A DNA stretch of 64,000 bases from contig CAVVCZ010000007.1 in NCBI GenBank assembly GCA_963746845.1, positions 60,488 to 124,487 on the forward strand, written 5' to 3'. The stretch is from an uncultured Chloroflexia bacterium. GTDB lineage: Bacteria > Chloroflexota > Limnocylindria > Limnocylindrales > CSP1-4. Below are positions 17,369 through 53,982 of this stretch, piece by piece (position 1 is the stretch's first letter; each line of letters opens with the position of its first letter). The notes beneath the pieces are model-generated. The model was not told where the DNA came from, made no database searches, and was given only the letters and a program-made list of their open reading frames with translations. A program made the position numbers and the translations under genes.

Positions 17369-18913
17369 TCAGCGGTCATCGAGCCGGACATAGGCATGCA
17401 GGCCGTGCATCCCGCCCTCGCGGCCGAACCCGGACTCCTTGTAGCCGCCGAACGGCGAGGTCGGATCGAACCGATTGAACGTGTTCGCCCAGACGACGCC
17501 GGCCTTCATCCGCTTGACCATCTGGAGAATCCGGCTGCCCTTGTCGGTCCAGATGCCCGCGGACAGCCCGTACGGCGTGTTGTTCGCCTTCTCTACGGCC
17601 TCCTCGGGTGTCCGGAACGTCAGGACGGACAGCACCGGTCCGAAGATCTCCTCCCGAGCGATCCGGTGGCTCTGGGCCACGTTCGTGAAGAGCGTTGGCC
17701 GGAAGAAGCAGCCGCGATCGGGCAGATCGCAGGCCGGCTGGTACATCTCCGCGCCCTCGGCCCGTCCGGCTGCGACCAGCTCCGTGATCTTCTCGAGCTG
17801 GGCCCGGGAGTTGATCGCGCCGACGTCCGTGTTCTTGTCGAGCGGGTCGCCGACCCGGATCGTCGCCAGGCGGTCCTTCAGCTTCTCGATCAGCGGCTCG
17901 ACGATCGACTCCTGGGCGAGCAGCCGCGACCCGGCACAGCAGACCTCGCCCTGGTTGAAGTAGATCCCGTTGACGATCCCCTCGACCGCCTGGTCGAGCG
18001 GGGCGTCGTCGAACACGATGTTCGCGGCCTTGCCGCCGAGCTCCAGGGTCAGCGCCTTGTCGGTGCCGGCGACCCCCTGGAAGATCTTCCGCCCGATCTC
18101 GGTCGATCCCGTGAAGGCGACCTTGTCGACGCCCGGGTGGGTGATCAGGGCCATCCCGATCTCGCCGGGGCCCGGGACGATGTTGACGACCCCCGGCGGG
18201 AGGTCGGCCTGGCGGCAGACGTCGGCGAAGAGCAGGGCGCTGAGCGGGGTCGTCGACGCCGGCTTCAGGACGACGGTGTTGCCGGCGGCGAGGGCCGGGG
18301 CGATCTTCCACGCGAGCATCAGGAGCGGGAAGTTCCACGGGATCACCTGGGCGGCGACGCCGAGCGGCCGGGCGACCCGTCCGGGGAACGCGTAGTCGAG
18401 CTTGTCCGCCCAGCCGGCGTAGTACCAGAAGTGGGCCGCGGCGAGCGGCACGTCGACGTCGCGCGACTCCTTGATCGGCTTGCCCGAGTCCATCGATTCG
18501 AGGACCGCGAACTCGCGCGACCGCTCCTGCAGGATCCGGGCGATCCGGAAGAGGTACTTCGCCCGCTCCTTGCCGGAGAGGGTCCCCCAGCGCCGGCGCT
18601 GGGCCGTCCGCGCCGCCCGGACGGCCGTGTCGACGTCCTTCGCCGCCGCCTTGGCGACGAGCGCGAGCGGCTCCTCGGTCGCGGGGTTGACGGTCGTGAA
18701 CGTCTCGCCGCCGGTCGCCTGGACCTCGCGGCCGTTGATGAACAGCCCATAGCGGTCCTTGATCGTGACGACGTCGCGCGACTCCGGCGCGGGCGCGTAC
18801 TCCCACGGGATCGCGGCACCGTCGCCGAGCCCCCAGCTCGACGGGTGCCCCCTCGACGCGGGTGACCGCGCCGTTCGTCGCCGCCGGATCGGCCGGGCGT
18901 CTTCGTGGCCATC
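17369..18913 (-). CDS. NAD(P)-dependent aldehyde dehydrogenase with apparent frame disruption(s) in the first ~35 codons
   Basis: Catalytic region intact (ELGGKAANIVF, EVCCAGSRL, EIFGPV, PFGGYKESGFGRE). The frame continues upstream of the track's first Met with clear ALDH N-terminal homology (KDRYGLFINGREV...TFTTVNPATEEPLA...DVDTAVRAARTA...RWGTLSGKERAKYLFRIARIL), but there is no in-frame ATG/GTG/TTG back to the stop at 18923-18925. A continuous N-terminus (MA.MATKTP / ADPAATNGAVTRVEGAPVELG / LGDGAAIPWEY...) is recovered only by removing one base from a CCC run and one from a GGGGG run near 18840-18900. Confidence 0.7.
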   Translation of the reverse strand, partial: DGHEDARPIRRRRTARSPASRGHPSSWGLGDGAAIPWEYAPAPESRDVVTIKDRYGLFINGREVQATGGETFTTVNPATEEPLALVAKAAAKDVDTAVRAARTAQRRRWGTLSGKERAKYLFRIARILQERSREFAVLESMDSGKPIKESRDVDVPLAAAHFWYYAGWADKLDYAFPGRVARPLGVAAQVIPWNFPLLMLAWKIAPALAAGNTVVLKPASTTPLSALLFADVCRQADLPPGVVNIVPGPGEIGMALITHPGVDKVAFTGSTEIGRKIFQGVAGTDKALTLELGGKAANIVFDDAPLDQAVEGIVNGIYFNQGEVCCAGSRLLAQESIVEPLIEKLKDRLATIRVGDPLDKNTDVGAINSRAQLEKITELVAAGRAEGAEMYQPACDLPDRGCFFRPTLFTNVAQSHRIAREEIFGPVLSVLTFRTPEEAVEKANNTPYGLSAGIWTDKGSRILQMVKRMKAGVVWANTFNRFDPTSPFGGYKESGFGREGGMHGLHAYVRLDDR

Positions 18914-18922
18914 GCGGCCATG

Positions 18923-20201
18923 CTACGCGAAGAGCGACTGACCGAGGTACCGGGCGGGATCGGGCACGCCAGGCAGGGTGTAGAAAAAGCCACCGCCGAC
19001 GGGGCGGATGTACTCCTCCAGCGGTTCGCCGGCGAGCCGCGCCTGGACGGCCAGGAACCCCGCCGCCAGATCGCGCTGGTAGCAGACGAAGACGAGGCCC
19101 TGGTCGAGGAGCCCGGCTGCGTCGAAGCCCCGGCTGTACGAGTAGCCGCGGCGGAGGATCCGGTTGCGTTCCGTCGCCGGCGTCCGCGGATTCGCGAGCC
19201 GGATGTGGGCGTCGAGCGGGACGACCTTGCCGTCCGGATCGCGTCGCGTAGTCCGGGATCGACTCCTCGCGCGGGCTGCCGAGAACCGCACCGGTGCGCT
19301 TCGTCCGCCCGATGATCCCTTCCTGCTCGCCGAGCGCGGTCCGGTCCCAGCGCTCGACGAACATCCGGATCGGCCGGACGACGAGGTAGCTGCCGCCCAC
19401 GGCCCAGTCCGGCTCGCCGTCCCGAGGCCCGACCCACACCAGCTCGTCGGCCACGGCGTCGTCTCCGACGGGCGGATTGGCCGTCCCGTCCTTGAACCCC
19501 AGCAGGTTGCGCGTCGTCGTGTGGCCCGGGGTCGCGGCCGGGTCCGGGCGCAGGAACCCGTCGATCAGCCAGCGCAGCCGGAGCGCGTCACGGACGCCCA
19601 TCTGGAGGTAGCGCAGGGCGTGGATGCACGCCTCCTGGTCGACCGCGCAGATCTGGATCAGCAGGTCGCCGTGGCTCAGGGCGGGGTCGATGACGTCCTT
19701 CGGGAAGACCGGCATCGGGGCGAGCTGCCGGGGCTTCCGATCGCCGAGACCGAACCGACCGTCGAACAGCGACGCCCCGACGGACACCGTCACGGTCAGG
19801 TCGGCCGGGCCTGTCGTCGCGCCGAGAATGCCGCTCTCCGGCGGCGGATAGAGCGGATCGCCGCCCTCCGGCGACCAGCCTGCGGCGAGGGTCCGGATCC
19901 GCGTCGTGAGGTCGGTCATCGCCCCGGCGAGGGTCGGACGATCCGGCGCCACGACGTCGAATGCGGCGAAGAGCGAGGCGGCCTGCGGCACGGCCGGGCG
20001 GACGATCCCGGCCTGGTGTGCGCCCTCGAAGGCCACGTGCGAGGCCTCGGCGGGGCGTGCCGCCGCGCCGCCCTGGGACGGGTCGACGGTGCCCGAGACG
20101 AGCACGCCGCCGACGCCACCGGCGACGGCCGCCGCGCCTGCTCCCGCCGCCGCAACGAGGAACCGGCGCCGGCTGAGCGCGGGCGTGGTGATCTCGGTCA
20201 T
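18923..20201 (-). pseudogene. efeB: Dyp-type peroxidase EfeB (Tat-dependent), interrupted by one frameshift near 19240-19250
   Basis: N-terminal twin-arginine signal (SRRRFLVAAAGAGAAAV), GFKDGTANP DyP motif, C-terminal HIRLANPR...RRGYSY...GLLFVCYQ...[10 protein letters not shown]. The N-terminal ~320 codons lie in one frame (inside a 1099-aa artefactual ORF) and the last 122 codons in another. The junction ...IPDYATR|[13 protein letters not shown] needs a 1-nt correction in a CGCG run. Confidence 0.75.
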
Positions 20202-20212
20202 GGCCGGGGCGA

Positions 20213-21376
20213 TCAGGCGAACAGGCCGAGCTTGCCGGGGAGCTCGGCGAGGACCTCGGACAGCTTCGCCATCCGGGCCTGGAGCGCGCCCAGGTCGGCC
20301 TTCGTGATCGCCGAGAACGGCTGGTAGCCCGACCCGTCCGCGTAGCGGCCGATGATCTCGTCGACCGCGCCATACGCCGCGTCGACGCCCGAGAGGTACG
20401 TCGGATCGACGGTCTGGATCGTCGGCCGCATGATGTCGACGATCTTCTTCGAGCCGGCCACGTTCCCGGCGATCGACCACAGGTCGGCCCCGGAGTAGCG
20501 GTCCTCCTCCCCGGTCAGCTTCGACTGGGCGACCTCCTCGATCAGCTCGCCGGCGCCGCGGGCCATGACCCGGGGCTCGATGTCCAGGGTCGCGAGCCGC
20601 TTGCCCAGCTCGGTCGCGTCGGCGCCGAGGCCCGCGGCGATCGGTGCGAGCCCGTTCGTCGTGCCGTCCTTCCACAGCCCCTTCTCCAGGCGGTGCCAGC
20701 CGAGGAACGCCGGATCGTCGACGCCGCCCGCGAAGTCCTCCTCGCGGGCGTCCATCCGCGTGTCGAGGTCCGAGAACAGCTCCGCGACCGGCTCGATCCG
20801 CTCCCAGGCCGGGCGCGACGGCGCGTAGGCGGCCTTCGCCGCATCGAGCTTGCCGTCCTCCACGGCGGTGACGAACGGCGCGAGGTTCTGCGTCAGCTCG
20901 GCGGCCTGCTCGCGGACGTACGTCTCGTATGCGGTCCGATAGCCCGCCAGGGTCGCAGCGTCGATGACCGCGCTGGACGGCCGGGGGGCCGAGCCGCCGG
21001 TCACGGCCAGCTGGCCGCGCGGTGCCTGGAGCGAGTAGCAGATCAGGGCGTAGGTGCCACCGTCGAGGCGGGTCGCGAAGTTGATCACGAACCCGGGGAC
21101 GATGTTCTCGACCTCGTCGACGACACGGGTGCCGGACAGGACCTCGAATTCGGCCGCATCCGGGCCGCCGTTCGTCACCTCGAACACGACCCGGCCCGCC
21201 GTGGCGTTGAGGCTGCCGGGCGTACAGCCGCTCGCCGTCAGCGTCACGGGGATCCGCGCCTCGGCATCACCGGCCGCCGTGCCGGATCCCGCCGGTGACG
21301 CGCTGCACGCGCCGACGACGACGGCGACCAGGGCCGAGGCGGCGAGGCGCGTGGAGCGGCGAGAACGGGTCGTCAT
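20213..21376 (-). CDS. efeO: iron uptake system component EfeO (cupredoxin-like N-domain plus imelysin/M75-like domain), lipoprotein
   Basis: 387 aa. N-terminal signal with lipobox-like VVGAC. Overall match to the EfeO pattern, and immediately upstream of efeB in the same orientation. Confidence 0.75.
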   Translation of the reverse strand: MTTRSRRSTRLAASALVAVVVGACSASPAGSGTAAGDAEARIPVTLTASGCTPGSLNATAGRVVFEVTNGGPDAAEFEVLSGTRVVDEVENIVPGFVINFATRLDGGTYALICYSLQAPRGQLAVTGGSAPRPSSAVIDAATLAGYRTAYETYVREQAAELTQNLAPFVTAVEDGKLDAAKAAYAPSRPAWERIEPVAELFSDLDTRMDAREEDFAGGVDDPAFLGWHRLEKGLWKDGTTNGLAPIAAGLGADATELGKRLATLDIEPRVMARGAGELIEEVAQSKLTGEEDRYSGADLWSIAGNVAGSKKIVDIMRPTIQTVDPTYLSGVDAAYGAVDEIIGRYADGSGYQPFSAITKADLGALQARMAKLSEVLAELPGKLGLFA

Positions 21377-21548
21377 GTCGGCGAGCGTGCCTCCGTGGTT
21401 GGTCGCGATCGGGCGGCACTCCGCGCCGCGCCGCGTCGCTCCGGCGGGCGGAATGGTAAGCCAACCTGCCTCAGCAGGGCAAGGGCACTTGCGTTACGAT
21501 ACCAAGTATGCTTGCTGACCAGCCACCAGCCGGCCCGGGACTCCGGGC

Positions 21549-22385
21549 GTGATCCCGGCCTTCCTGATCACCCTCCGCGAGGGGCTCGAGGCGGCCCTGA
21601 TCGTCGGGATCGTCGCCGCGTATGTCGTCCGCGTCGGCCGGCGCGACGCGCTGCCGAAGGTCTGGTTCGGCGTGGCAGCGGCCGTCGGCCTGTCGATCGG
21701 GATCGGGCTCGTCGTCGTCGCCACGATCGAACGCCTGCCGCTCGTCGTCCAGGAGTCGATCGAGGGCGCGACCGCACTGCTCGCCGTCGCGATCCTGACC
21801 TGGATGCTCTTCTGGATGCGCCGCCAGGGCCGAGCGATGAAGGGCGAGCTCGAGCACGGCGTCGATCTGGCCCTCGCGAAGGGCTCGGTCGCGGCGCTCG
21901 TCGGCCTCGCGTTCGTGGCCGTCTTCCGCGAGGGCATCGAGACGGTCCTGTTCATGGCCGTGGTCTTCTCGGCGACGCAGGTGGGTCCCGGCCCAGCGTT
22001 CGGGGCCATCGCCGGTCTCGCGGTCGCGGTGCTGATCGGCTGGGCGATCTTCGTCGCCGGCGTCCGGATCGACCTGCGCCGCTTCTTCTCGATCACCGGG
22101 GTGCTCCTGATCTTCGTGGCGGCGGGCCTGTGCGCCTTCGCCGTCGGCGAATTCGGCGAGGCGGGGCTGATCTCGAACACCGGCGCCGTCTTCGACCTGA
22201 GCGGGGTCCTGCCGGTGACCAGCGCGCTCGGGAGCGTGCTCGCGGGGCTCTTCGGCTATCGAGCGTCCCCCACCCCGCTCGAGCTGATCGCGTACTTCGC
22301 CTACCTGATCCCGGTCCTGACGCTGTTCCTCCTCGGGGATCGCCGGTCGGCACCGCGGGCGAAGCCGGTCGACGCCGGGGCCTGA
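21549..22385 (+). CDS. efeU: FTR1-family high-affinity iron permease (EfeU)
   Basis: 278 aa, 7 TM, two REGLE/REGIE motifs (LREGLEAALIVG and FREGIETVLFMA) diagnostic of FTR1/EfeU. Divergent from efeO. Confidence 0.8.
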   Translation: MIPAFLITLREGLEAALIVGIVAAYVVRVGRRDALPKVWFGVAAAVGLSIGIGLVVVATIERLPLVVQESIEGATALLAVAILTWMLFWMRRQGRAMKGELEHGVDLALAKGSVAALVGLAFVAVFREGIETVLFMAVVFSATQVGPGPAFGAIAGLAVAVLIGWAIFVAGVRIDLRRFFSITGVLLIFVAAGLCAFAVGEFGEAGLISNTGAVFDLSGVLPVTSALGSVLAGLFGYRASPTPLELIAYFAYLIPVLTLFLLGDRRSAPRAKPVDAGA

Positions 22386-22395
22386 TCCGGCTCCG

Positions 22396-23331
22396 TCAAC
22401 CGCGCGTCGAGAGGTCGGCGAGGGTCGGCGGGTCGGCGCCCGCCCGGCCGACCGTCCAGGACGCGACGCGCACCGCGAACCGGACGGCGTCGAGGACGGC
22501 GTCCGCGTCATGGAGGTCCTCCCGTCCCCGTCCCGAGTGCGTCCAGGCCGCCAGGAACCCGGCCGCGAACGCGTCGCCCGCGCCGACGGTGTCGACGAGC
22601 GGGACCCGCGGGACCGGGATCTCGACCGTGCCCGCGGGGCGGACGATCCGGATCGGCGCCGGGCCGTCCGTCAGCAGGACGATCGCCGGCCCCGCTGCGA
22701 CGAGCCCGCGCGCGGCGGCGATCGCGTCGGCGCCGGGGGCGAGCCAGCGGAGGTCGTCGACGCTGACCTTGACGACGTCGGCACGGCGCACGACCGCCTT
22801 CAGCCGCGCCCGGTAGACCGTCTCGTCGAGGATCGCCGCCGGGCGGATGTTCGGGTCGAGCATCACCAGGACGGCCGAGTCGGCCGCCGCGACCAGATCG
22901 GCGATCGTCGTCGCCGTCGGCTCCAGCACGAGGCCGAGCGTGCCCACGTGGAACACCGCCGCGGTCGGCGGCAGCCCGTCCGGAAGGTCGTCAGAGCGGA
23001 GCCCCGCCGCCGCGGAGCCCGGCGGCTCGAACCGGTAGGTCGCCGCGCCATGGGCGTCGAGCGAGGCGATCGCCTGGAGGGTCGGCTCGTCCGTGTCCCG
23101 GGTCAGCGACAGGTCGACGCCGTCGTCTTCGAGGAGTCCGCGGAGAACACGCCCGTCGGGGTCGGTCGAGAGGCGGCCGAGGAACGCCACCCGGCAGCCG
23201 AGCCGGCCCAGGGCACGCGCGGTCGTGAACGGTCCGCCGCCGGGCACGGCATCGACCCGCCCGTCGGTCCGCGCGATCCGGTCGATCAGGCTCTCCCCGG
23301 CGACGACGATCAGGGGTCGGTCATCGGACAT
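22396..23331 (-). CDS. PfkB-family carbohydrate kinase (fructokinase/ribokinase-like)
   Basis: 311-aa protein starting MSDDRPLIVVAGESLIDRI, with C-terminal PfkB signature DTVGAGDAFAAGFLA. ATG at 23329-23331 inside a longer artefactual ORF. Confidence 0.8.
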   Translation of the reverse strand: MSDDRPLIVVAGESLIDRIARTDGRVDAVPGGGPFTTARALGRLGCRVAFLGRLSTDPDGRVLRGLLEDDGVDLSLTRDTDEPTLQAIASLDAHGAATYRFEPPGSAAAGLRSDDLPDGLPPTAAVFHVGTLGLVLEPTATTIADLVAAADSAVLVMLDPNIRPAAILDETVYRARLKAVVRRADVVKVSVDDLRWLAPGADAIAAARGLVAAGPAIVLLTDGPAPIRIVRPAGTVEIPVPRVPLVDTVGAGDAFAAGFLAAWTHSGRGREDLHDADAVLDAVRFAVRVASWTVGRAGADPPTLADLSTRG

Positions 23332-23385
23332 CGCCGAAGCGTAGGGCGGCCGCCGAGCCGGCGTCCGTGCCGGTAGGCTGCCGCG

Positions 23386-24090: not shown

Positions 24091-24123
24091 GCCGGCCGCG
24101 TTCCAGCGACTACGCTCCGCGCG

Positions 24124-40930: not shown

Positions 40931-42850
40931 GTGAGCACGACCTCGCGCGAAGGGCGGCCGGTCGAGATCGAGCTGAAGTACCGCGTCATCGATCGGCCGG
41001 CGGGTGATCACTACCTCGGCGCGGACGACGTCGCCGGGTTCGTCCCCGCGTCGGCGGTCCGCTCGGCCCAGGTCGAGGATCGCTACATCGACACGGTCGA
41101 CGGCGCCCTGGCCCGTGCCGGATTCGCGGCGCGGATCCGCCAGACGGCCAAGACGACGACCGTCGCGGTGAAGTCCGCCATCCGCCGGCGTGACCGGGGC
41201 GGCCTCCATCGGCGCGAGGAGCTGGAAGGTCCCGCCGACCGGACCTCGCCGCCGCGCGACTGGCCCCCGTCCGATGCCCGCTCCCTGATCCTCGAGCAAT
41301 GCGGCGACGCGCCGCTCGTCGAGGTCGTCACGATCCGTCAGCTTCGCCGGAAGCGGATCCTCGAGCGCGACGGGACGGCCGTCGAGGTGAGCCTCGACGA
41401 GGTGGATGCGGTCACGCGGAGCCGGGTCGTCGGCCGGTTCGTCGAGCTCGAGTTCGAGCTGGTGCGCGGCGACGAGGCCGCCCTCGTCGACATCGAACGG
41501 ACCCTCGCCGCCGACCCCGGGCTGGCACCGGCCGATTCGTCGAAGCTGGAGTCCGCGCTCCGCGCGGTGACCTCGACCGAATCACGCCGCGCCCGGAAGG
41601 GCGACCGCCTCCTGCCCCCGGTCGACGTCGACGACGCCGACGGCGAGGCGGATGCGGACGGCGAGCGCTTCGACGACGGCCAGGACGTCGGCCGGATCGT
41701 CGCGGCGGCGCTGGGCGAGGCTGCCCGTACCGCCGAGCCCGCCCCTCCCGCGAGCGGCGGAGCCACGCCGGCGGCGGCGGCGGCGAAGCGACGCACGGCA
41801 CCACGGACGGAGCCGGACGTCACACCGGTGATGGCGGGCGCATCCGTGCCCGAGGCAGCCCCGCCGAAGCCGGTCGCGACGACGCCGGACGATCCGGACG
41901 AGCGGCCGCGCCTCGTCGTCGGCAAGACGCCGGGCGTCCTCGCCGACGACCACCTCGCCGAGGCAGGCCGGAAGGTGCTCCGCTTCCACCTGGCCCGGAT
42001 GATCGCCCGCGAGGCCGGCACCCGGACCGGTGACGACCCCGAGGACCTCCACGCGATGCGCGTGGCGACCCGTCGCCAGCGGGCCGCGTGGCGGATCTTC
42101 GGCGAGGCGTTCCGCGACCGGCGCACGAAGGCCCATCGACGGCGCCTCCGCGAGGTCGCGTCGCGACTCGGGGCGGTCCGCGATCTCGACGTGCTGCTCG
42201 AGGCGATGGACGTCTATCGGGCGGACCTGCCGGTCGTCGAGCAGCGCGCCCTCGAGCCGCTGGTCGCGGCGTGGCGCGTCCACCGCGACGACGCGCGGGT
42301 GCTCCTCCTCCGCGAGCTCGATTCCGACGGATACCGTCGCTGGCTCGACGACTACGCGGAGTTCGTCCGGCACGAAGGCCTGGGCGCGCGACCGGTCGCC
42401 CCGACCGAGCCGCATCGGGTGCGAGACACCGCCGCGTCACGGGTCCAGGCCGCCTACGAGCAGGTCCGGGCCTACGAGCCGGTCCTGCGCTGGGCGGATG
42501 TCGACACGCTCCACGAGCTCCGGATCGCCGGGAAGTGGCTGCGCTACACGCTGGAGTTCGTGCGCGAGGCGCTCGGGCCGGACGCGGACGCCCTGATCGG
42601 CCGGGTCACGGCCCTCCAGGACCATCTCGGGCTCATGCACGACGCCGACGTCGCCGCGCACCTGGCGCGCGACTTCCTCCTTGACCACGCAGGCGACCTC
42701 AGCGACCTCGAGAGCGGCGCGATCGGGCGCTACCTCGTGAGCCGCGAACGGGAGGTCAACCGTCTGCGCCGGACCGTCGGCCCGACCTGGCGCGGCGTGA
42801 GCGGGATCGGGTTCCGGCGCGGCCTCGGACGGGCGCTCGCGGGTCTCTAG
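40931..42850 (+). CDS. CYTH-domain plus CHAD-domain protein
   Basis: N-terminal CYTH (EIELKY...E.E.E acidic pattern), C-terminal CHAD (HAMRVATRRQRAAWRIFGEAF...LREVASRLGAVRDLDV). Start is the GTG at 40931 or the upstream GTG at 40871, which overlaps the ppk1 end. Confidence 0.8.
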   Translation: MSTTSREGRPVEIELKYRVIDRPAGDHYLGADDVAGFVPASAVRSAQVEDRYIDTVDGALARAGFAARIRQTAKTTTVAVKSAIRRRDRGGLHRREELEGPADRTSPPRDWPPSDARSLILEQCGDAPLVEVVTIRQLRRKRILERDGTAVEVSLDEVDAVTRSRVVGRFVELEFELVRGDEAALVDIERTLAADPGLAPADSSKLESALRAVTSTESRRARKGDRLLPPVDVDDADGEADADGERFDDGQDVGRIVAAALGEAARTAEPAPPASGGATPAAAAAKRRTAPRTEPDVTPVMAGASVPEAAPPKPVATTPDDPDERPRLVVGKTPGVLADDHLAEAGRKVLRFHLARMIAREAGTRTGDDPEDLHAMRVATRRQRAAWRIFGEAFRDRRTKAHRRRLREVASRLGAVRDLDVLLEAMDVYRADLPVVEQRALEPLVAAWRVHRDDARVLLLRELDSDGYRRWLDDYAEFVRHEGLGARPVAPTEPHRVRDTAASRVQAAYEQVRAYEPVLRWADVDTLHELRIAGKWLRYTLEFVREALGPDADALIGRVTALQDHLGLMHDADVAAHLARDFLLDHAGDLSDLESGAIGRYLVSREREVNRLRRTVGPTWRGVSGIGFRRGLGRALAGL

Positions 42851-43797: not shown

Positions 43798-43812
43798 GGG
43801 TGGGCTGCCCCC

Positions 43813-45068: not shown

Positions 45069-45280
45069 CGCGGGAGTGTATCGGCCGGCCTCGGCCCCGT
45101 GTTGTTGACCCGCTGCAAACATCGCGGAAATCCGCGCCCTCGACGCTCTCGGGGGACCTCGATTCCGATCCGGCGGTCGTGCTCGGAGCGACGGCCGGTC
45201 CCTCCTCCTGGCCGGTGTGCTGCTCGGGCACACCGGCCAGCCTCGTTTCCGGGTAAGCGGACGTCGCGGAACCCCCGACC

Positions 45281-45372: not shown

Positions 45373-45412
45373 GAACACCGTCGGCTCCCCAGGCCGGCGG
45401 AGAGGAGGACAC

Positions 45413-46652
45413 TTGATCGCGAGATCCCGCGTCGGCGCCGCCCTGACCGTCGCCAGCCTGTTCGTCGTCGCCGCCTGCAGCGGCGGTACCCTCAGTCCAT
45501 CACCGTCCGCCGCAGCCCCGTCGACGGTAGCAAGTGCTCCCGCAGACACTGGCGCTCCCTCTGGAGGAGCTCCCTCCGCATCGGTGGCAGCGCCGTCGGC
45601 CCAGGCAATCTCCTACCGCTGCTCGAAGGGCGACGGCCAGCTGAACGGCGCCGGATCGACATTCATCTTCCCGCTCATGCTCGAAGTGGGGCGACGACTA
45701 CAACACCAAGTGCGGCGTCAAGACTCAACTACCAGTCGATCGGCTCCGGCGGTGGCGTCGAAGGGCTGGACGCAGAACACCGTCGACTTCGGTGCCTCCG
45801 ACGCCTACCTCCAGGACGAGCGAGATCGCGGCCGCGGCCAAGAACGGCGAGCCGGTCGAGATCCCGGTCACCTTCGGGGCGGTGGTGGTCGCCTACAACC
45901 TGAAGGGCCTGTCGGCGCCGCTCAAGATGACGCCGGACATCGTCGCGAACCTGTTCCTGGGCAAGATCGCGAAGTGGAACGACCCTCGATCGCCGCGGCG
46001 AACCCGGGCGTGAACGCTGCCGGACATGGATGTCAGCGTCGTCCACCGCTCGGACGGGTCGGGCACCACGAGCATCTTCACCAACGTACCTGACGAAGGT
46101 CGAGCCCGGACTGGGTCACGACCGTCGGGGCCGGCGACCCGAAGAAGTCGGCCGGGCAAGACGGTCGGAATGGCCGACGGGTCTCGGGCGCGAGCGGCAA
46201 TGAGGGCGTCACCCAGGGGATCACCCAGACCGAGGGCGGGCGTCGGGTACATCGAGCTCGCGTACGCTCTGAAGAACAAGATCCCGTTCGCGGATGTGGC
46301 GAACAAGTCCGGCGCGTTCGTCACGCCGTCGCTCGACTCGGTCGAAAGCGGCCGCCGACCTGCCCGAGCTACCCGGCCGACCTGCGGTTCGACCTGGTCG
46401 ACACTCGACTCCCCGCACGGGCTATCCGATCACCGGGCACGACCTGGCTGATCATCTACAAGGACCTGTCGAAGGTGCTCAAGACCCAGGATCGAGCGAC
46501 CTCGTTGGCCGACTTTCTCTGGTGGGCGATCCACGAAGGCCAGGACAGTGCCGCGCCACTCTTCTATGCGGCGATCCCGGCAGGCCTGCTTCCGCAGGAC
46601 GAGGCGGCCGTGAAGTCGCTCAACTGGGGCGGCCAGGCGCTGCTGCCATAGT
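45413..46652 (+). pseudogene. pstS: phosphate ABC transporter substrate-binding protein PstS, broken into at least 4 frames
   Basis: N-terminal signal plus lipobox (VVAACSGG) and LNGAGSTFIFPLM in the first frame. Recognisable PstS segments then appear in shifted frames (SIGSGGGVEGL..., EIPVTFGAVVVAYNLKGL...KWNDP, VVHRSDGSGTTSIFT..., C-terminus ...KSLNWGGQALLP). Apparent stop at 46650-46652. Confidence 0.7.
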
Positions 46653-46761
46653 CTTCGATCCTCCTGTCACGACGCCGGCCCCCGGCATCCCGCGACGCCC
46701 GGGGCGGCGTCATCATTCCGGGAACCTACCCACTACATCGGGACGTGAGACGCTGCCGCAG

Positions 46762-47729
46762 ATGACGACCGTCGGTCAGGGCTTCGAGCAACGGCGATTG
46801 ACCAAGCGTTCCGTCGTGACCGGGGACCTCGTGTTCCGCGTGTTCACCGCCGCGCTGACATTCGCGGTTGTGCTCTTGATCAGCTTGATGGTCTACAAGA
46901 GCGTCGTGACCACCGTCCCGGTCTTCGACAAGTTCGGCGTTGTCGGCTTCGTCACCGGGACGCGATGGTCCCCGTCATTCGGAATCTACGGGGCCTTGCC
47001 GTTCATCTACGGGACGGTCCTGACCAGCGCAATGGCGCTCCTGATCGCAGTTCCGATCGCGCTTGGGATTGCGCTCCTCGTCACGGAGATGCTACCGCGA
47101 CGGATCGCCGGGCCCGTGGCCGTCGCCGTTGACCTGCTGGCCGCCATCCCGTCGGTCGTCTGGGGCCTGTGGGGGCTGCTCGTGCTCGTCCCGTTCCTGA
47201 GACCAATCGAGACGGCGATCGCCGGAAGCATCGGCCAGCTCATCCCGTTCCTTGGACCGCCCACGCCGGGACCCAGCTACTTCGCCGCCGGCGTCATCGT
47301 CGCGTTCATGATCATCCCGATCGTCGCCGCCGTCACCCGGGAGGTCTTCGCGGCCACCCCGCGGCTCCAGCGGGAGGCAGCCCTCGCCCTGGGCGGGACT
47401 CGCTGGGACGTCATCCGCCACGTCGTCGTCCCGATCGGGCGAACCGGCATCCAGGCGGCGGTGATCCTCGGGCTCGGACGGGCGATCGGCGAGACCATCG
47501 CGGTCACGCTCGTGATCGGGAACTCAACGAAGATCGGACCTCGATCTTTTCGCCAGGATTCTCGCTGGCCTCGGTCATCGCCAACGAGTTCAACGAAGCG
47601 ACCGAGCCGCTCCATCCGGAGTCGCTCATCACGCTGGGGGTCGTTCTGCTCGCGATCGCGGTGATCGTGAACGGTGCAGGTGTCGCCGTGCGTAGGCGCT
47701 TCGAGCAAGGTTCTGGCCGTGCTGGCTGA
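46762..47729 (+). pseudogene. pstC: phosphate ABC transporter permease PstC with a frameshift near 47530
   Basis: PstC TM core in one frame up to ...TLVIGNSTKIGP. The conserved C-terminus (IFSPGFSLASVIANEFNEATEPLHPESLITLGVVLL...) continues in another frame to the stop at 47727-47729. Confidence 0.7.
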
Positions 47730-47757
47730 TCCGACGCTCGTGTTCCGGCCGACGGGC

Positions 47758-48620
47758 CGCAGTCGCCTGGCAAGAGCCCGGCTGGTCTAGGTTCTCGCCG
47801 TCATCGCGCTGGTCGCTGCCCTGATCCCTCTGGTTTCCATCTTGACATTCCTCATCAGCCAGGGCATTGGCGTCATCCGGCTCGAGTTCCTCACCGAGGA
47901 CCCGCCAGGGCGATCTGAGCCAGGTCGGCGGCGGGATCCGGAATGCGGTTGTCGGCTCGCTCATGATGACCGGGCTTGCGACGATCTTCGCAGTGCCAGC
48001 CGGGATCCTCATCGCGGTCTTCAACCGGGAGATTGGAGGACGGCCGGCCGTCGCCATCCGCTTCCTGATGGACGTGCTCGTGGCGCTGCCGTCGATCGTG
48101 GTCGGGATCTTCGTCTACGAACTCGTCGTCGTCGCCCAGGGCCACTTCTCGGGGTTTGCCGGCTCGGTCGCTCTCGCGATCATCATGCTTCCGATCATCG
48201 TCATCTCGACCGAGGAGATGCTGCGCCTCGTTCCCGGCCCGGTTTCCGAAGGCGTCCGCGCCCTTGGGCTGACACGCTGGCGTTCGTACCTCGTCGGTGA
48301 TCATTCCGACGGCGCTGTCGGGGATCTTCACGGGCATCCTGCTCGCGGTCTCGCGCGCCATCGGCGAGACGGCGCCGCTGATCTTCACGGCGCTCGGCAA
48401 CAACTTCTTCACCCTGGACTTCAGCGAGCCCATGCAGGCGTTGCCGCTGTTGATCTATCGGAATGCGCTCAATTCCGCATTCCCGCGGCGCGCGACCGTG
48501 CGATGGGCGCTGCCCTTGTCCTCGTGGTGATCGTGCTCATCTTCAATCTTGTTGGCCGGTGGCTGGTGAGCAGACGTCTCGCCGAGCGACCGGCGCCAGT
48601 GAGCGGAACTGAGGTGCAGA
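47758..48620 (+). pseudogene. pstA: phosphate ABC transporter permease PstA with at least 3 frame breaks (approximate bounds)
   Basis: PstA segments alternate between frames: ...FLISQGIGVIRLEFLTEDPPG / ...GIRNAVVGSLMMTGLATIFAVPAGILIAV...ISTEEMLRLVPGPVSEGVRALGLTRW / IIPTALSGIFTGILLAVSRAIGETAPLIFTALGNNFF... / ...AMGAALVLVVIVLIFNLVGRWLVSRRL. Confidence 0.6.
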
Positions 48621-49470
48621 TGATCGCCGAGCTTGAACCCGATCCCGCTGACGTGTCCGCCGCCGTCCCGCAGGCGGCCATCGAGGTGGCGCCCAGGGAT
48701 ACGGACAATGTCCTGACCCTCGAGCATCTCGATGCCTATTACGGCAGCCGAAAGGTCGTCCGTGACGTGACGCTCGGCGTTCGGACGAACGCGATCACGG
48801 CGATCATCGGCCCGTCAGGAAGCGGCAAGTCCACGATGCTTCGATGCATCGACCGGATGCACGAAGTCATTCCGGGAGCCAGCGCGACCGGCACGATCCA
48901 GTATCGCGGAATCGACTCTATGGAGATGGGATCGATCCTGCAGCTGTTCGCCGGACGATCGGCATGGTCTTCCAGCAGCCGAACCCGTTCCCGACAAGTC
49001 GATCTTCGACAATGTCGTGGCCGCTCGGTTCAACGGCCTGGTCAAGGGCAAGACAGCGCGACGAGCTCGTCGAGACGAAGCCTTCGTCAGGCCGCCCTCT
49101 GGGACGAGGTCAAGGACAAGCTCAAGCAGAGCGGGCTCTCCCTGTCGGGCGGACAGCAACAGCGTCTCTGCATCGCGCGCGCGATTGCACGGAGCCGGAG
49201 ATGCTCCTGATGGACGAGCCGTGCTCGGCCCTCGATCCGCGCGCCACGCTTCAGATCGAGCAGCTGATGACCGAGCTCAAGGCCCGCTACACGATCGTCA
49301 TCGTGACCCACAACATGCAGCAGGCTGCCCGTGCATCGGACCGGACGGCGTTCCTGACGATGGGCGAGGATCGAGCAGGCTACGTCGTGGAGGAGGGTCG
49401 GACGGCCGACATCTTCACGAACCCGAAGCACCAGCTCACCGAGGACTATGTGTCGGGCCGATTCGGATGA
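48609..49470 (+). pseudogene. pstB: phosphate ABC transporter ATP-binding protein PstB with at least 3 frame breaks
   Basis: Walker A IIGPSGSGKST, TIGMVFQQPNPFP, signature LSGGQQQRLCIARAIA, Walker B MLLMDEPCSALDP and the C-terminus ...TEDYVSGRFG are all present but spread over alternating frames. Start is probably the ATG at about 48609 (MIAELEP...). Confidence 0.65.
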
Positions 49471-49627
49471 GCGAACGAGAGGCTGAGGACTGACCCATGA
49501 CCGACGATCCGAACGCCCAACGCTCGTCCCATGCATCTCCCGTCATCGCGGCGGCGATGACGGTTGTGCGGAAGCGGCCGATTCATACAACGAAGCCCAT
49601 CCGCCGCGTCCGAGCCTCGACCTGGAC

Positions 49628-50257
49628 ATGCGCGAGATCAAGGACGACATCCTCCGGATGGGCTCCTATGTGGAGGAGGCGATTCGAGCCGCGATGGCCG
49701 CCCTCGTTGCGCACGACGCGGCGTCCGCGACGGCCGTCATCGTCGCCGACGCGAAGATCAATGAGATGCAACGGGAAGTCACGGGCCTGATCACCCGGAC
49801 GATCGCGATGCAGTCGCCCGTCGCGCGCGATCTCCGGTTCCTGCTCGCGCTCGACCACGTCAGCTACGAGCTCGAGCGGATGGGCGACCACGCCGCTTCT
49901 GTCGCGAAGCAGGTCCGCAAGCTCGCCCCCTACCCGCCCCTGAAGCGCTATGTCGACCTCCCGGCAATGGGCGACCTCGCCGCGACGCTCGTCGGCAACA
50001 TCCTCCTGGCGCTGGTCGACGTCGATGTCGATGCGGCACGGCGCGTCGCGGCGCGCGACGACGAGATCGACGACCTCTACCACAGGACCTTCGCCGAGGT
50101 CGTCGAGCTGATGCGGGCGGACCCGGACAACGTCGAACGCGGCACCCGGATCCTGTTCGCCTCGCACTACGTCGAGCGGATCGGCGACCGGGTCACGAAC
50201 ATCGCCGAGGACGTGGTCTTCCTCGCGAGCGGCGAGATCGAGGACCTCAATCCATGA
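49628..50257 (+). CDS. phoU: phosphate signalling complex protein PhoU (5' end uncertain)
   Basis: Two PhoU repeats (PVARDLRFLLALDHVSYELERMGDHAASVAK and HYVERIGDRVTNIAEDVVF). In-frame homology extends about 10 codons upstream of the first ATG (...EAHPPRPSLDLDMREIKDDILRMG) with no canonical start, so the true start may lie upstream or be affected by another indel. Confidence 0.75.
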   Translation: MREIKDDILRMGSYVEEAIRAAMAALVAHDAASATAVIVADAKINEMQREVTGLITRTIAMQSPVARDLRFLLALDHVSYELERMGDHAASVAKQVRKLAPYPPLKRYVDLPAMGDLAATLVGNILLALVDVDVDAARRVAARDDEIDDLYHRTFAEVVELMRADPDNVERGTRILFASHYVERIGDRVTNIAEDVVFLASGEIEDLNP

Positions 50258-50700
50258 CGGAACCGACCAGGGTCCTGTTCGTCTCGACCGGCGGTGCCTG
50301 CCGGGCGATCTTCGCCCAGGCCCTCCTCCGGCACGTCGGCGGCGGGGCCTTCGACGCCTGGGCGTGCGGGACCGATCCGGCCCCGATCGATCCGCTGACG
50401 ATCCAGGTCCTCCAGGAGGCCGGGATCGACGGTTCCGGGCTCGAGCCGAGGGCCCTGAGCGAGGTGCTCGGCAAGCCGTTCGACTACGTCATCACGGTCT
50501 GCGACGACGCCCGGCTCGCCTGTCCGGTCTTCCCCGGCGCCGACCACTCGATGCATTGGGGCTACCCGAGTCCGGCGAAGGTCCAGGACCCCGCGGAGCG
50601 CAGGGCGGCGTTCGAGCGCGTCTTCATCCTCCTCGGCGAGCGGATTCGCCAGTTCGTTCTGCTCACCGAGCGGATCCAGCCCGCGGCCGCGGCGCACTAG
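50254..50700 (+). CDS. LMW-PTP/ArsC-fold protein with Ser in place of the nucleophilic Cys (variant paralogue)
   Basis: P-loop reads VSTGGACRAI instead of CTGNSCRS. The distal Cys pair of Trx-coupled ArsC (ITVCDDARLACPVFPG) is retained. Start overlaps the phoU stop. Confidence 0.55.
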   Translation: MTEPTRVLFVSTGGACRAIFAQALLRHVGGGAFDAWACGTDPAPIDPLTIQVLQEAGIDGSGLEPRALSEVLGKPFDYVITVCDDARLACPVFPGADHSMHWGYPSPAKVQDPAERRAAFERVFILLGERIRQFVLLTERIQPAAAAH

Positions 50701-50703
50701 GCG

Positions 50704-51144
50704 ATGGGGCCGGTCGCCGCCGATCCGGTCCGGATCCTCGTCCTCTGCACCGGGAACTCGTGCCGGTCGATCCTCGCCGAGGCGCTGTTCCGCGAGCTCG
50801 GCGGGGCCCGGGTCGCGGTGGAGTCGGCGGGAAGCCATCCCGCCGGCCGCGTCGACCCGCGCACGATCCGCGTCCTCGATGAGGCGGGCATCGATCACGC
50901 CTGGGCCCGATCGAAGTCGATGACCGAGCTCTTCGACCGGCCGTTCGACCATGTGATCACCGTCTGCGACGACGCAGCCGAGGCATGCCCCGTCTTTCCG
51001 GGCCCGGCCGTGCGGACCCACTGGAGCATCCCCGATCCCGTCGACGCCACCGGGAGCGACGAGGAGCAGCTCGCCGTCTACCGCGCGACGATGGCCGATC
51101 TACGCGAGCGGATCACCGCGTTCGTCGCTACCCTCGACACGTGA
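50704..51144 (+). CDS. arsC: arsenate reductase, LMW-PTP family (thioredoxin-coupled type)
   Basis: Canonical P-loop LVLCTGNSCRSILAEA plus the second and third Cys (ITVCDDAAEACPVFPG). Confidence 0.75.
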   Translation: MGPVAADPVRILVLCTGNSCRSILAEALFRELGGARVAVESAGSHPAGRVDPRTIRVLDEAGIDHAWARSKSMTELFDRPFDHVITVCDDAAEACPVFPGPAVRTHWSIPDPVDATGSDEEQLAVYRATMADLRERITAFVATLDT

Positions 51145-51641
51145 GCTCCGATACGCTCCAGCTGTACCTCCTTCGCCACGCCGACGCGGGCGATTCGGCG
51201 GCGTGGGATGGCGACGACGCCCATCGGCCGCTCAGCCCGAAGGGCGAGGCCCAGGCCGAGCGCCTCGCGACGTTCCTGCACGGGATCCGGTTCTCGACCG
51301 ACGCCCTGATCACGTCGCCCAAGGTGCGGGCGCTGCGCACCGCGGAGATCGTCGCCGACGGTCTCGGCGCGACGGTTCGGGTGGACGATCGCCTGGGGCT
51401 GCCGTACGAGCTGGCCACGATCGACGAGATCCTCGCCGATGCCGGATCGCCTGAGCGGCCCGTGCTGTCAGGCCACGACCCGGAGTTCAGCCACGTGCTG
51501 TCGGTCCTGGCCGGCGCCGGTGACCTGATCATGAAGAAGGGCGCGTTCGCGCGAATTGACGTCCGCGGCCGGGTCGCCGACGGGCGCGGCACGCTGCGCT
51601 GGCTGATCCCACCGGACCTGCTGAATCGGGACCGCCGCTGA
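51141..51641 (+). CDS. sixA: histidine phosphatase family protein (SixA-like phosphohistidine phosphatase)
   Basis: GTG overlapping the arsC stop. RHA motif LYLLRHADAG with a following His region. 166 aa. Confidence 0.65.
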   Translation: MSSDTLQLYLLRHADAGDSAAWDGDDAHRPLSPKGEAQAERLATFLHGIRFSTDALITSPKVRALRTAEIVADGLGATVRVDDRLGLPYELATIDEILADAGSPERPVLSGHDPEFSHVLSVLAGAGDLIMKKGAFARIDVRGRVADGRGTLRWLIPPDLLNRDRR

Positions 51642-51971
51642 GGGTCGACCGGACTCGACGGATGTCCATGCCGCCGTGAACCCGCGTCCATGTCCCGCGC
51701 CACCCCTCGGGACGACGATGGCCCCACCAGTTGCCATTCGCCCAGAGGATCGTGACCGTCATGCAGCCACTCGCCGCCTACTACGTCTTCCTCGCGAACG
51801 AGGAGGCCCGCCAGGCCGACGCTCGTCCGCATTACCGCACCCAGACGCCGCGCCGCTCGACCCGATCCCGGTTCAGCGCCGCCGTCGCCACCCTCGCCCG
51901 GCCCGTTCGCCGGAGCGCGGGATCACCCGCCTGACCGCCCCTCCGATCCGCCGGCCTGATCCGTTCCGCGG

Positions 51972-53227
51972 TCAGCCGGCTCCCGTCGGGACGACGAGCG
52001 GCTCGTCGTCCTCCGCGTCGATCGGGAACGGCAGCGCGATCGGATCGGTCGCCAGCCGGCTCCGGCCGGCGGCATCGAACCGATCGAGGCCGAGATCGCC
52101 GACGTCGACGACGTCCGTCGATCCGGTCATAGCCAGGTCCGCGGCGACGCGCGCCACGCCCGGTCCCCACATCATCCCGTGACCGCCCGCCGAGGCGATC
52201 GTCACGCCCGAGATCCGCTCGCCGGCCGCCGACAGGCCCGGCCCGAGGATCGGCAGATGGTCGGGCGTGAAGTCGATCGTCGCGGCCCAGATCTTCCGGA
52301 GGCCGAGCCCGCGGGTCACCGGCACGAACCCCGCCAGGCGATCGCGCATCGCCTCGTACATCGCCCAGTCGATGGCGCGGGCCTCGCCGGGCCGATCGCT
52401 CGGGTCGCTCCAGCCGAACAGCAGCCCGCCCTCCTCGAGGCGCCAGTACAGGCCCGCCCCGATGTCGAACACCATCGGCTGGCGCTCGACGGCGAACGCC
52501 TCGTGCGGCTGCGAGGACCGCGACCGTGTGGCGGACGGCGCCCGCCGGGATCCGGATGCCCGCCAGCCGGCCGACGGCTCGCAGCCCGGGACCGCCGGTG
52601 AGCAGCACCCGCTCCGCCGCGATCGGTCCGTGGTCCGTCACGACCCCGACGACCCGTGACCCGCCACCGGGGAGCGGCTCCGTCCGGAGACCCGTGAACG
52701 CGGTGTGCTCGCGCAGCTCGACGTCGGCGCGGTCCATCGCGAGCGAGTAGGCGCGGACGTTGCGGGGCGGGTCGATGTGGCCGTCCGTCGCGAGGTAGCT
52801 GCCGCCGCGATGCCCGTCCGGGCTCAGGGTGGGGTTCAGGGCGACGGCCTCGGACGGCGAGACCCAGCGGACGTCGAGGCCGGCCGCTCCGCTGCATCGC
52901 GACGCGCTCGCGACCGGACCGCTCGTCCTCGTCGGTGACCGCGAGGATCAGGTAGCCGAGCTCGCGGAAGCCGCTGTCGGTGCCGAACGTCGCCGACTGA
53001 CGACGGTAGAAGTCGATCGACCAGCGGCCGAGGGCGACGGTTGTCGGCGTCCCGCCCTGGGCCCGGACGATCCCCGCCGCGCGGCTGCTCGCGCCCTGGC
53101 CCGGCGATCGCCGCGCTCGACGACGACGACCCGCCCGGCGCCGTCCATCGCGGCGAAGGTGCTCGCCCAGCCGCCGATCGTGCCCGCGCCGACGACGACG
53201 AGATCCGCGCGTTCCGTGCTGCTCACG
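51972..53227 (-). pseudogene. DAO-family FAD-dependent oxidoreductase (glycine/sarcosine-oxidase-like) with at least 2 frame breaks
   Basis: N-terminus VSSTERADLVVVGAGTIGGWASTFAAMDGAGRVVVVERGD in one frame, the middle part (...DVELREHTAFTGL...VVGVVTDHGPIAAERVLLTGGPG) in a second, and the C-terminus (...IASAGGHGMMWGPGVARVAADLAMTGS...) in a third. Confidence 0.6.
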
Positions 53228-53982
53228 TCGGGAGGATAGGCCGGGGCCGGGCGCCGCCGGTCGGCGCGTCGCGATGGTCGGGCCGGGTGAGCCGTCGAGG
53301 ACCGATCAGCCGTCGAGGGCCGCGGCCTCGCGCAGATCGCGACGACGCCGAGACGCTCGAAGCGCCGGTAGGTCGCCCGGCGGCGGACGGTCCAGGTCGC
53401 GACCTCCAGGCCCGCGTCGCGGGCGCGCCCGATCCCGGCCGGATCGAGCGCGTGCCACTCGATCGAGACGCCGCGGCACCCCAGGTCGACGGCACGGCCG
53501 ATCGTGTGCGGCGAGGCGTCACGAGAGTTGAGCCAGCGCGGCCAGGTCGGCGCCCAGTCCGCGATCCGCGCGAGCGTGGCGTCCCAGAAGGACGACACGA
53601 CGGCTCGCTCGAGACCCGGACCACGGCCGGCGACGATCGTCTCGAACGCGCCGCGTCCGGGGTCACCCTTCAGCTCGATGTCGAGGAACGCTCGGCGCGG
53701 GGCAGTCGCGAGGACCTGCTCCAGGCTCGGCACCCCGAGCCGCTCCAGCTCGTCGGCCGTCAGGTCGGCCACGCGGTCATGCAACCCATGGACCCGTAAC
53801 AGCGTGTCATCGTGGTAACAGACGGCCACGCCATCGCGGGACGCCCGCACGTCGAACTCCAGGCCGTCACAGCCCGGAACGTCCAGGGCGGCCAGGAACG
53901 CGGCGATCGTGTTCTCGGGGGCGCGTCGCCAATCGCCGCGATGGGCGAGCCGGAGCGCCCGCGGCGACAGGGGCTCGATCAT
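53228..53982 (-). CDS. glycerophosphodiester phosphodiesterase (GDPD family); 3' end unclear (no in-frame stop before the DAO-like N-terminus)
   Basis: ATG at 53980-53982 (overlaps the stop of the upstream EEP gene). GDPD motifs LAHRGDWRRAPENTIAAF and DGLEFDVRASRDGVAVCYHDDTL. After about 220 residues the frame becomes Arg-rich with rare codons and runs without a stop into the DAO-like GxGxxG segment. Confidence 0.65.

Follow-up and report, generated by a model that had tools for sequence, protein, structure and literature searches.

Clustered frame breaks in the efeB-ALDH, pst and DAO-GDPD loci of an uncultured Chloroflexota genome: probable local consensus errors of the assembly

The frame breaks described here are very probably local consensus errors of the assembly and not mutations of the organism. 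Approximately 34 frame-disrupting indels were placed, by a frame HMM together with frameshift-aware and nucleotide alignments, in the window (the whole stretch of 64,000 nucleotides that was analysed). They fall into three patches that make up 7% of it and hit efeB, ALDH, pstS, pstC, pstA, pstB, DAO and GDPD, all of them otherwise well conserved. The window most likely belongs to a MAG built from long reads only (Nanopore-type), judging by the technology used for its relatives. In three kb-scale stretches the polisher would have lacked clean reads of sufficient depth from a single strain and would have emitted single-base indels there, mostly an extra G or C, leaving a sound consensus elsewhere.

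Location and extent of the frame breaks

Three concordant methods locate the breaks: a GC3 frame-HMM, frameshift-aware protein-to-DNA alignment with intact orthologues, and an alignment at the nucleotide level with the syntenic locus of a relative, L081, where the genes are intact. Placement by plain blastx or tblastn was dropped, since gapped HSPs smear across out-of-frame stretches in DNA of 72% GC, and was replaced by a frameshift-aware dynamic-programming aligner. The features concerned are the following.

17369 to 18921, minus strand: aldehyde dehydrogenase (ALDH), two breaks (extra bases) within the first 26 codons
18843 to 19241, minus strand: patch A, three extra bases in about 400 bp, in the 3' part of efeB and the 5' end of ALDH
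18923 to 20201, minus strand: efeB (DyP-type peroxidase), a single break, one extra base at about 19241
45413 to 46651, plus strand: pstS, 16 events (45680 to 46433), namely 14 of +1, one of +2 and one of -1
45680 to 49190, plus strand: patch B, 26 frame-disrupting indels in pstS-pstC-pstA-pstB, three spacer indels and one nonsense codon
46762 to 47729, plus strand: pstC, one -1 event at 47540
47719 to 48610 (end approximate), plus strand: pstA, four events (47911, 48292, 48485 and 48580), three of +1 and one of -1
48620 to 49470, plus strand: pstB, five events (48916 to 49190), three of -1, one of -2 and one of +1
49628 to 50257, plus strand: phoU, control gene, unbroken
51972 to 53232, minus strand: DAO-family FAD oxidoreductase, four +1 events (52511, 52888, 53100 and 53110)
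52511 to 53330, minus strand: patch C, five events in 0.8 kb, in DAO and the 3' end of GDPD
53306 to 53982, minus strand: GDPD phosphodiesterase, one base missing at about 53330, nine codons ahead of the stop

In patch A, removal of one base turns efeB into a 425-aa DyP with a Tat signal, matching Dyp_perox_N (1-145 of 146) and Dyp_perox_C (1-165 of 166), in agreement with the single break that a first-pass annotation of this DNA had set at about 19245. The same annotation had proposed two early breaks in ALDH, and two are found. One extra base lies in a CCCGG stretch at about 18895, as had been suggested; the other lies within GCACCCGTCG at about 18844, and not in the GGGGG run at 18830-18834, according to N-terminal alignment with homologues of 516-522 aa. 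The N-termini of these homologues place this shift about 14 nt upstream of the GGGGG run, which is thereby ruled out, and a shift in the run at 18849-18853 was also rejected, as it would yield GHP against the conserved AP of the homologues. Without both bases ALDH reads as 516 aa from an ATG at 18921, with 90-92% identity to the homologues over 100% of its own length.

The densest part of patch B corresponds to the pstS events, 16 per 0.75 kb. The corrected PstS is 89% identical to the intact 408-aa protein P0001 over 100% of the length and covers positions 7-262 of 267 of PBP_like_2. Indels also occur in the spacers, at 46677, 46740 and 48603. In addition, pstA carries an in-frame TAG at 47788-47790 where L081 has CAG, and this C-to-T nonsense codon could be a genuine mutation. 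All four pst genes had already been recognized as broken, with an estimate of about ten breaks that falls well below the indels now placed; a further break suspected at the 5' end of phoU is not there, given that relatives match residues 1-209 with identities reaching 90%.

In patch C, the DAO gene holds four insertions where at least two had been expected. Once corrected, its product covers the Pfam DAO model from 1 to 353 of 353, and its orthologues are 75-78% identical. The cluster extends into GDPD, whose break had been overlooked: as assembled, the GDPD ORF continues into DAO, whereas the GDPD of all relatives finishes in '...AICVEAAALDG*' and the window holds 'EAAALDG*' in the next frame. 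Skipping single bases restores full-length conserved proteins, and all frame-corrected products cover their Pfam models end to end.

Outside the patches the frames are clean. With L081 as the reference, 31 of 31 non-triplet gaps lie inside pstSCAB, DAO and GDPD (5.8 kb) and none in ten other genes (7.6 kb), a distribution with a binomial probability of about 5e-12. By Pfam, the LuxR/LAL regulator, the S9 peptidase, the DEAD helicase, a CYTH-CHAD protein and two histidine kinases are full-length and intact, as is PPK1 with all four of its domains. Hence, the first-pass view of clustered rather than uniform breaks beside clean long neighbours holds, and its breaks are real; its count of at least 12 was too low, and a few of its placements were off.

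Codon-level divergence and the indel spectrum

Taken as genuine pseudogenes, the pst operon, efeB, ALDH, DAO and GDPD would be inactivated and decaying, for instance if life in fertilised soil made high-affinity phosphate uptake unnecessary. The many disruptions among functionally related phosphate-scavenging genes, the in-frame TAG of pstA and the existence of broken pst operons in several long-read relatives would be in line with this notion, which we nevertheless regard as highly unlikely. In this regard, the patches straddle gene borders, from the 3' end of efeB into the 5' end of ALDH in patch A and from the 3' end of GDPD into DAO in patch C, and end inside genes; they are therefore stretches of DNA and not traits of particular genes.

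A comparison with orthologues, which had been proposed earlier as a check, points in the same direction. The L081 locus is syntenic, with 85% nucleotide identity, and its PstS, PstC, PstA, PstB, PhoU, DAO and GDPD are all full length. Between 64 and 76% of the mismatches of the broken genes to L081 are at third codon positions, like in the intact neighbours, and divergence at positions 1+2 amounts to 0.025-0.092 in broken genes versus 0.039-0.118 in intact neighbours; for the densest patch (pstS) it is 0.041, compared to 0.059 in ppk. Relaxed selection, sought as an excess of change at codon positions 1+2 of the broken genes over their intact neighbours with L081 as reference, was not found; only the indels set the broken genes apart. 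The low GC of pst, for its part, is intrinsic, as it is also present in the intact operon of L081.

In natural decay, substitutions far outnumber indels. The pst genes show the contrary, with an indel-to-substitution ratio of at least 1: they carry 26 indels versus about 16 excess deviations at invariant columns plus one stop. In another relative, L035, there are 16 breaks, yet only 2 of 628 otherwise invariant columns deviate.

Bacterial mutation is biased toward deletions and toward AT. The events in the window run in reverse: insertions make up 26 of the 34 (+1 in 25 cases, +2 in one) and deletions the other eight (-1 in seven, -2 in one). The bases gained are almost always C or G and those lost almost always A or T, so that the events enrich GC. 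The pstB patch differs from this pattern, being dominated by deletions of A or T. No multi-base deletions were found in the broken genes, where all events span 1-2 nt. Many of the insertions look as if the two versions of a synonymous third-position C/G variant had been placed in tandem, e.g., GTCG where an orthologue has GTG. As to the local context, the first-pass annotation had located several breaks in homopolymer or simple-repeat runs. Of the skipped bases, 22-33% lie in runs of at least 3 identical bases, versus 13% expected, and none of them is in a long run; simple-repeat tracts longer than 5 nt, as phase variation would involve, were absent from the break contexts.

The perfect conservation of the proteins once single bases are skipped could also be taken to mean that the frameshifts are real and that programmed ribosomal frameshifting, transcriptional slippage or RNA editing restores the products. 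This is extremely improbable, considering that up to 16 sites would have to be read through in a single gene, that +1 and -1 events are both present and that events occur in intergenic spacers too. Neither the break contexts nor the placement against L081 revealed a common slippery or heptamer motif among the break sites. An apparent TCGA or methylation motif proved to be an impression from alignment-dependent placement, and no single motif emerges once the breaks are placed exactly against L081. Moreover, the closest relatives do not have their breaks at the same positions, which argues against inherited pseudogenes as well: L081 has none and L014 has others. Recurrence of positions between MAGs is not above chance (p 0.18-0.64), and same-site recurrence was accordingly discarded as a sign of systematic context errors or programmed sites; the pstB break ATCGAC-TCTAY, common to the window and L014, is within chance expectation.

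Assemblies of relatives and origin of the patches

At least ten pst breaks occur at 6 of 34 loci from Nanopore-only MFD MAGs and at none of about 44 short-read loci (one-sided p of about 0.005). Within the clade, these bursts are present in long-read-only assemblies and absent from short-read ones, a further point against pseudogenes, and those of relatives are nearly all +1. Breakage of pst is strong in four relatives, DAO patches appear in L021 and L023, and related long-read MAGs contain such patches about once per 20-40 kb. The MFD MAGs were produced with metaFlye and one round of Medaka, without short-read polishing, at a read N50 of about 6 kb (PMC12313526). More frameshifts have been reported in Nanopore than in HiFi assemblies of soil (PMC13087279), and a near-finished consensus requires about 40x depth (PMC9262707). 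Locally poor consensus, one of the alternatives offered by the first-pass annotation, is thus the one favoured by the unchanged selection signature, the GC-enriching insertion bias and the restriction of bursts to long reads, and the same evidence, together with L035, tells against the true pseudogenisation that it had offered beside it.

Two routes to such consensus errors are compatible with the data. On the one hand, reads of co-occurring strains with diverged alleles may have been polished together, in which case the consensus would keep both alternatives of a SNP in tandem (GTG/GTC giving GTCG). Such mixing would explain the insertion-rich, G/C-rich spectrum of the pstS patch and fits the condition of pstSCA as a swapped, hypervariable cassette in the clade. 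The A/T-deletion-dominated pstB patch is not predicted by it. On the other hand, local depth may have dropped by chance in a genome of low coverage, and with reads of about 6 kb the resulting patches would be of kb scale. The insertion-dominated, substitution-free profile is unlike what is expected of a simple, raw-read-like consensus at low depth.

Some observations on relatives bear on the first route. The relatives closest in the flanks carry another pstSCA cassette, and protein identity between cassette types is just 28-38%; phosphate-acquisition genes are known to be mobile, and swapped cassettes inside conserved flanks fit this. The flanks of L023 and L026, which stem from a single sample, share 89-90% identity, as against about 66% over the stretch that is broken in L026. 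Two ALDH alleles are fused in tandem on another, related Flye contig. P0121 was considered as a second assembly of the window's organism and rejected; it represents another organism and contains a tandem duplication of alleles. Neither does pst stand out as a special error hot-spot, its per-kb rate not being clearly above that of patches elsewhere in the long-read relatives, and the link to the hypervariable cassette is weaker because those other patches are about as frequent per kb.

Collapse of paralogues, in which a second pst operon of the same genome, or additional copies of DAO or ALDH, would have contributed reads to one merged consensus, is treated here as a variant of the consensus-artefact explanation, separable from the mixing of strain alleles only by reads. 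The several pstSCA cassette types of the clade, and the capacity of two similar sequences to produce tandem-allele insertions when merged, would speak for it. We consider it quite improbable: cassette types as distant as those above would hardly co-align, the window's operon is colinear with that of L081 at 85-86% identity without mosaic jumps, and patches A and C do not lie in genes repeated within the window. The pst operon sits in the fully conserved ppk-ppx-pstSCAB-phoU synteny, and is hence the resident copy and not the collapsed second operon contemplated earlier.

There is, finally, a slim chance that the indels are real or report something real, be it an extremely recent, insertion-only mutational burst aimed at a small number of loci, the hypervariable pstSCA cassette among them, or an unknown DNA modification, locally dense, that derails base-calling in these patches alone. 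Either would mean that uncultured soil Chloroflexota have a locus-targeted process not yet described.

Implications and comparison with known systems

The evidence points to an ordinary phenomenon and not to a real biological feature, yet to one that is relevant for annotation. At face value, the window would describe an organism that lacks functional versions of the high-affinity phosphate transporter, DyP peroxidase, aldehyde dehydrogenase and glycerophosphodiester pathway. Such a reading would skew both metabolic reconstructions and counts of pseudogenes in a soil lineage that is abundant and uncultured. The host is not an actinomycete but belongs to high-GC Chloroflexota (Ca. Limnocylindrales), a lineage mostly known from MAGs. 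Recognizing kb-scale patches of consensus error is thus of value for quality control, and no gene loss should be concluded from such genomes until they have undergone frame-aware annotation or strain-aware re-polishing. Of modest biological interest is the occurrence of different pstSCA cassettes in the conserved flanks of very close relatives.

Like the pseudogenes of reductive decay in Mycobacterium leprae and Rickettsia, the broken genes of the window have several disruptions each beside intact neighbours. Unlike them, they display neither relaxed selection, nor a deletion or AT bias, nor larger deletions; nonsense codons are almost nil and the breaks are not inherited by relatives. The likeness to errors of Nanopore-only MAGs (metaFlye and Medaka) is closer in kind, comprising ORF-truncating single-base indels, restriction to long-read assemblies within the clade, patches on the scale of read length and recovery of the proteins by skipping one base. 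Nanopore errors of the classical kind are deletions within long homopolymers; the window differs in its mostly G/C insertions outside long homopolymers, in the lack of a detectable excess of substitutions and in the confinement to three patches. Polishing artefacts from mixed haplotypes or strains, for which two diverged alleles would have to co-occur, would not account for the A/T deletions that dominate the pstB patch; what these artefacts share with the window are the tandem-allele-like insertions and the position of the largest patch, on the cassette whose make-up is hypervariable from one close relative to the next.

Position and extent of the frame breaks

Reading frames were called over the whole window with a GC3 frame plot and a seven-state frame HMM. 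Stable, gene-length frames cover nearly all of it, and the frame switches match stop/start junctions, with three exceptions:

about 19.24 kb, frame switch in the GC3 plot and the HMM
45.1-49.6 kb, so scrambled that the HMM calls much of it non-coding
52.5-53.1 kb, frame switch in the GC3 plot and the HMM

Ordinary BLAST could not position the breaks, and these were placed by a purpose-written frameshift-aware protein-to-DNA aligner, with intact orthologues of relatives as queries. The frame-corrected PstS shares 89% identity over 100% of its length with P0001, an intact PstS of 408 aa. The 21-kb locus of P0001, L081, is colinear with window positions 35.0-56.8 kb at ~85% nucleotide identity. 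All genes of L081 are intact, the pst orthologues included. A MAFFT alignment of the window to L081 gave the definitive list of non-triplet gaps.

Non-triplet gaps of the window relative to L081
45680-46433, plus strand, pstS, 16 gaps
47540, plus strand, pstC, 1 gap
47911, 48292, 48485 and 48580, plus strand, pstA, 4 gaps
48916-49190, plus strand, pstB, 5 gaps
52511, 52888, 53100 and 53110, minus strand, DAO, 4 gaps
about 53330, minus strand, GDPD, 1 gap

The remaining breaks lie on the minus strand in efeB and the ALDH gene. The efeB gene is interrupted by a single surplus base at about 19241; without it, the gene encodes a 425-aa Tat-signal DyP in which both Pfam DyP domains are covered completely. 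The ALDH main frame has no start codon for 143 codons; removing two extra bases (about 18895 and about 18844), whose positions are fixed by the N-terminal alignment (MAAMATKTP...GAVTRVEGAPSSWGLGDG), joins the ATG at 18921 to the main frame, and the corrected protein (516 aa) is 90-92% identical, along its entire length (100%), to dozens of homologues of 516-522 aa. The tail 'EAAALDG*' that ends GDPD in all relatives sits in the next frame in the window, so the assembled GDPD ORF continues into DAO. In addition, the pstA codon at 47788-47790 reads TAG, in frame, against CAG in L081. This is a single C-to-T change within GTCCAGG; CCAGG is a Dcm-type motif, and the TAG could be a methylation-related miscall. 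The whole tally is about 34 frame-disrupting events and one nonsense codon. They occupy three patches, 0.4, 3.5 and 0.8 kb long, and two of these extend across gene borders. Once corrected, the proteins all span their Pfam models end to end.

The clustering of the breaks, already claimed in the first-pass annotation together with the intactness of the long neighbouring genes (here full length by Pfam), is real and extreme. For all 31 events to land in the broken genes (5.8 kb) and none in the intact genes (7.6 kb), the probability is about 5e-12. No non-triplet gap relative to L081 was found in ppk, ppx, ABC_tran, three small genes, both LMW phosphatases, His_Phos or the histidine kinase. ABC2mem, CYTH-CHAD and ExoEndo have four together, which were discounted because they sit where alignment segments end or within a low-complexity linker. 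In the CYTH-CHAD linker (41735-41790), a -1/+4 gap pair falls in a poorly aligned GGC/GCG-rich low-complexity stretch, and looks like natural divergence rather than an error pair. The break suspected at the phoU 5' end did not materialize, as PhoU is free of any break. It is called at 252 aa in L081 and 209 aa in the window (stretches compared: window 49470-49628 and L081 14071-14200); the 43 extra codons are not conserved and contain indels of 8 and 16 nt, and the longer call is probably an over-extended start.

Selection signature and indel spectrum of the broken genes

Several observations bear on whether these genes are real pseudogenes. Compared with L081, 64-76% of the mismatches in the broken genes are at third codon positions, and divergence at positions 1+2 is 0.025-0.092, no higher than in intact neighbours (0.039-0.118); the densest patch, 0.75 kb with 16 indels, has 0.041 and ppk 0.059. 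The broken genes keep an unchanged selection signature, which argues against pseudogenes. In natural decay, substitutions far outnumber indels. At columns of the Pst proteins invariant among eight orthologues, the window deviates at 29/655 and intact relatives at 13-14; L035, a relative with 16 breaks, deviates at 2/628. Indels without accompanying substitutions likewise speak against decay.

The spectrum points the same way. Insertions make up 26/34 events, every event is 1-2 nt long, and with few exceptions the bases gained are C or G and those lost are A or T. Mutation in bacteria favours deletions and AT, and such a spectrum, wrong for biology, argues against pseudogenes. Finally, the GC content of pst is lower (65-67%; window ~72%), likewise in intact L081; it is therefore intrinsic, and this also argues against decay. 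Elsewhere, a strong AT skew of +0.29 on the plus strand at 12000-14900 falls where genes for ABC-2 type membrane proteins lie on the minus strand, and is probably mere membrane-protein codon composition.

Gene neighbourhood and frame breaks in relatives

The intact PhoU (49628-50257), searched against species-representative genomes, yielded 80 loci, 34 of them from Nanopore MAGs of the Microflora Danica (MFD) long-read catalogue. Matches, at up to 90% protein identity, are exclusively Chloroflexota/Ca. Limnocylindrales MAGs, which disagrees with the actinomycete-style annotation initially given. Relatives share the order ppk1, CYTH-CHAD, ppx, pstSCAB, phoU, two LMW phosphatases, His_Phos, DAO, GDPD. 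Since this surrounding order is conserved, the pst operon of the window is the resident one and no extra copy, contrary to a proposed collapse of a second operon. The phosphate-related neighbourhood kept in L081 comprises, at 38.5-56.2 kb:

ppk1, CYTH-CHAD, ppx, pstSCAB, phoU and two LMW-phosphatase/ArsC-like genes
His_Phos_1, DAO-family oxidoreductase, GDPD, Exo_endo_phos and histidine kinase

The same frameshift-aware aligner was run on the pst operon of each of the 80 loci. Bursts of at least 10 breaks occur in six (L014, L026, L035, L072, L079, L080), all Nanopore MFD MAGs, and in none of roughly 44 short-read loci, which have at most two doubtful calls per gene (one-sided p about 0.005). 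In relatives, too, almost every break is a +1 insertion of G or C. Different MAGs share break positions no more often than chance predicts (p 0.18-0.64); this rules out programmed sites that are conserved, as well as errors dictated strongly by context, and disfavours recoding.

Under uniform settings, breaks in pst versus flanks number 11 vs 1 (L014), 9 vs 0 (L026), 15 vs 0 (L035) and 20 vs 2 (L072). The per-kb patch rate in long-read relatives is, however, not clearly higher in pst than in flanks, and since patches also lie elsewhere, a special role for pst is weakened. L021 and L023, both with intact pst operons, have 3 and 2 breaks in DAO, respectively, and the phoU match of the long-read L052 (10001-10628) takes 628 nt for 209 aa, a frame break elsewhere. 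The three patches of the window (64 kb) agree with a base rate of roughly one patch per 20-40 kb.

Candidate causes of the patches

In a strain mixture, a polisher fed two alleles could prefer keeping both in tandem. Many insertions resemble tandem alternatives of a synonymous C/G variant (e.g. GTCG vs GTG in L081). The relatives nearest in the flanks (PhoU 83-90%, Ppk 77-86%) have a different pstSCA cassette, at 28-38% protein identity; L014, L081 and genomes further away share the type of the window. L023 and L026, from one soil sample, are 89-90% identical over flanks of 6.3 and 11.5 kb and about 66% across the cassette (6441-9081), the broken stretch of L026. Judging from these comparisons, pstSCA (45.4-48.8 kb) behaves like a laterally swapped cassette within conserved flanks. 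The efeB/ALDH patch sits on a synteny breakpoint, since the gene upstream of ALDH differs in a short-read relative. In L083 (10001-12589; ENA ERZ25039576 contig_80977, Flye), the 862-aa 'ALDH' ORF P0121 fuses in frame two slightly different versions of one gene (residues 12-406 and 467-861), and resembles a tandem assembly of two strain alleles.

Alternatively, depth may fluctuate by chance in a low-coverage genome, and patches would then take the length scale of reads. For a genome covered 5-6x on average, 6-12% of positions would have <=2 reads; a near-finished consensus takes about 40x (PMC9262707). Both causes are compatible with the patches. Strain mixing is favoured by the pstS patch, whose profile is insertion-only and free of substitutions, but does not account for the pstB patch, which is rich in deletions.

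The most likely cause is that the assembly consensus failed locally, rather than pseudogenisation, a collapsed second operon or recoding; the sequencing technology and the local cause are inferred. Of the two options first put forward, locally poor consensus agrees with the selection signature, the odd indel spectrum and the Nanopore-only bursts, and pseudogenisation is disfavoured by that signature, the lack of substitutions and the non-biological spectrum. The frame breaks are not real as a biological feature, and are useful as a caution for annotation. MFD MAGs were built with metaFlye and one Medaka round, without short-read polishing, at a read N50 of about 6 kb, and the catalogue authors noted Nanopore-associated errors in lower-coverage MAGs (PMC12313526); in soil assemblies, frameshifts are commoner in Nanopore than in HiFi (PMC13087279).
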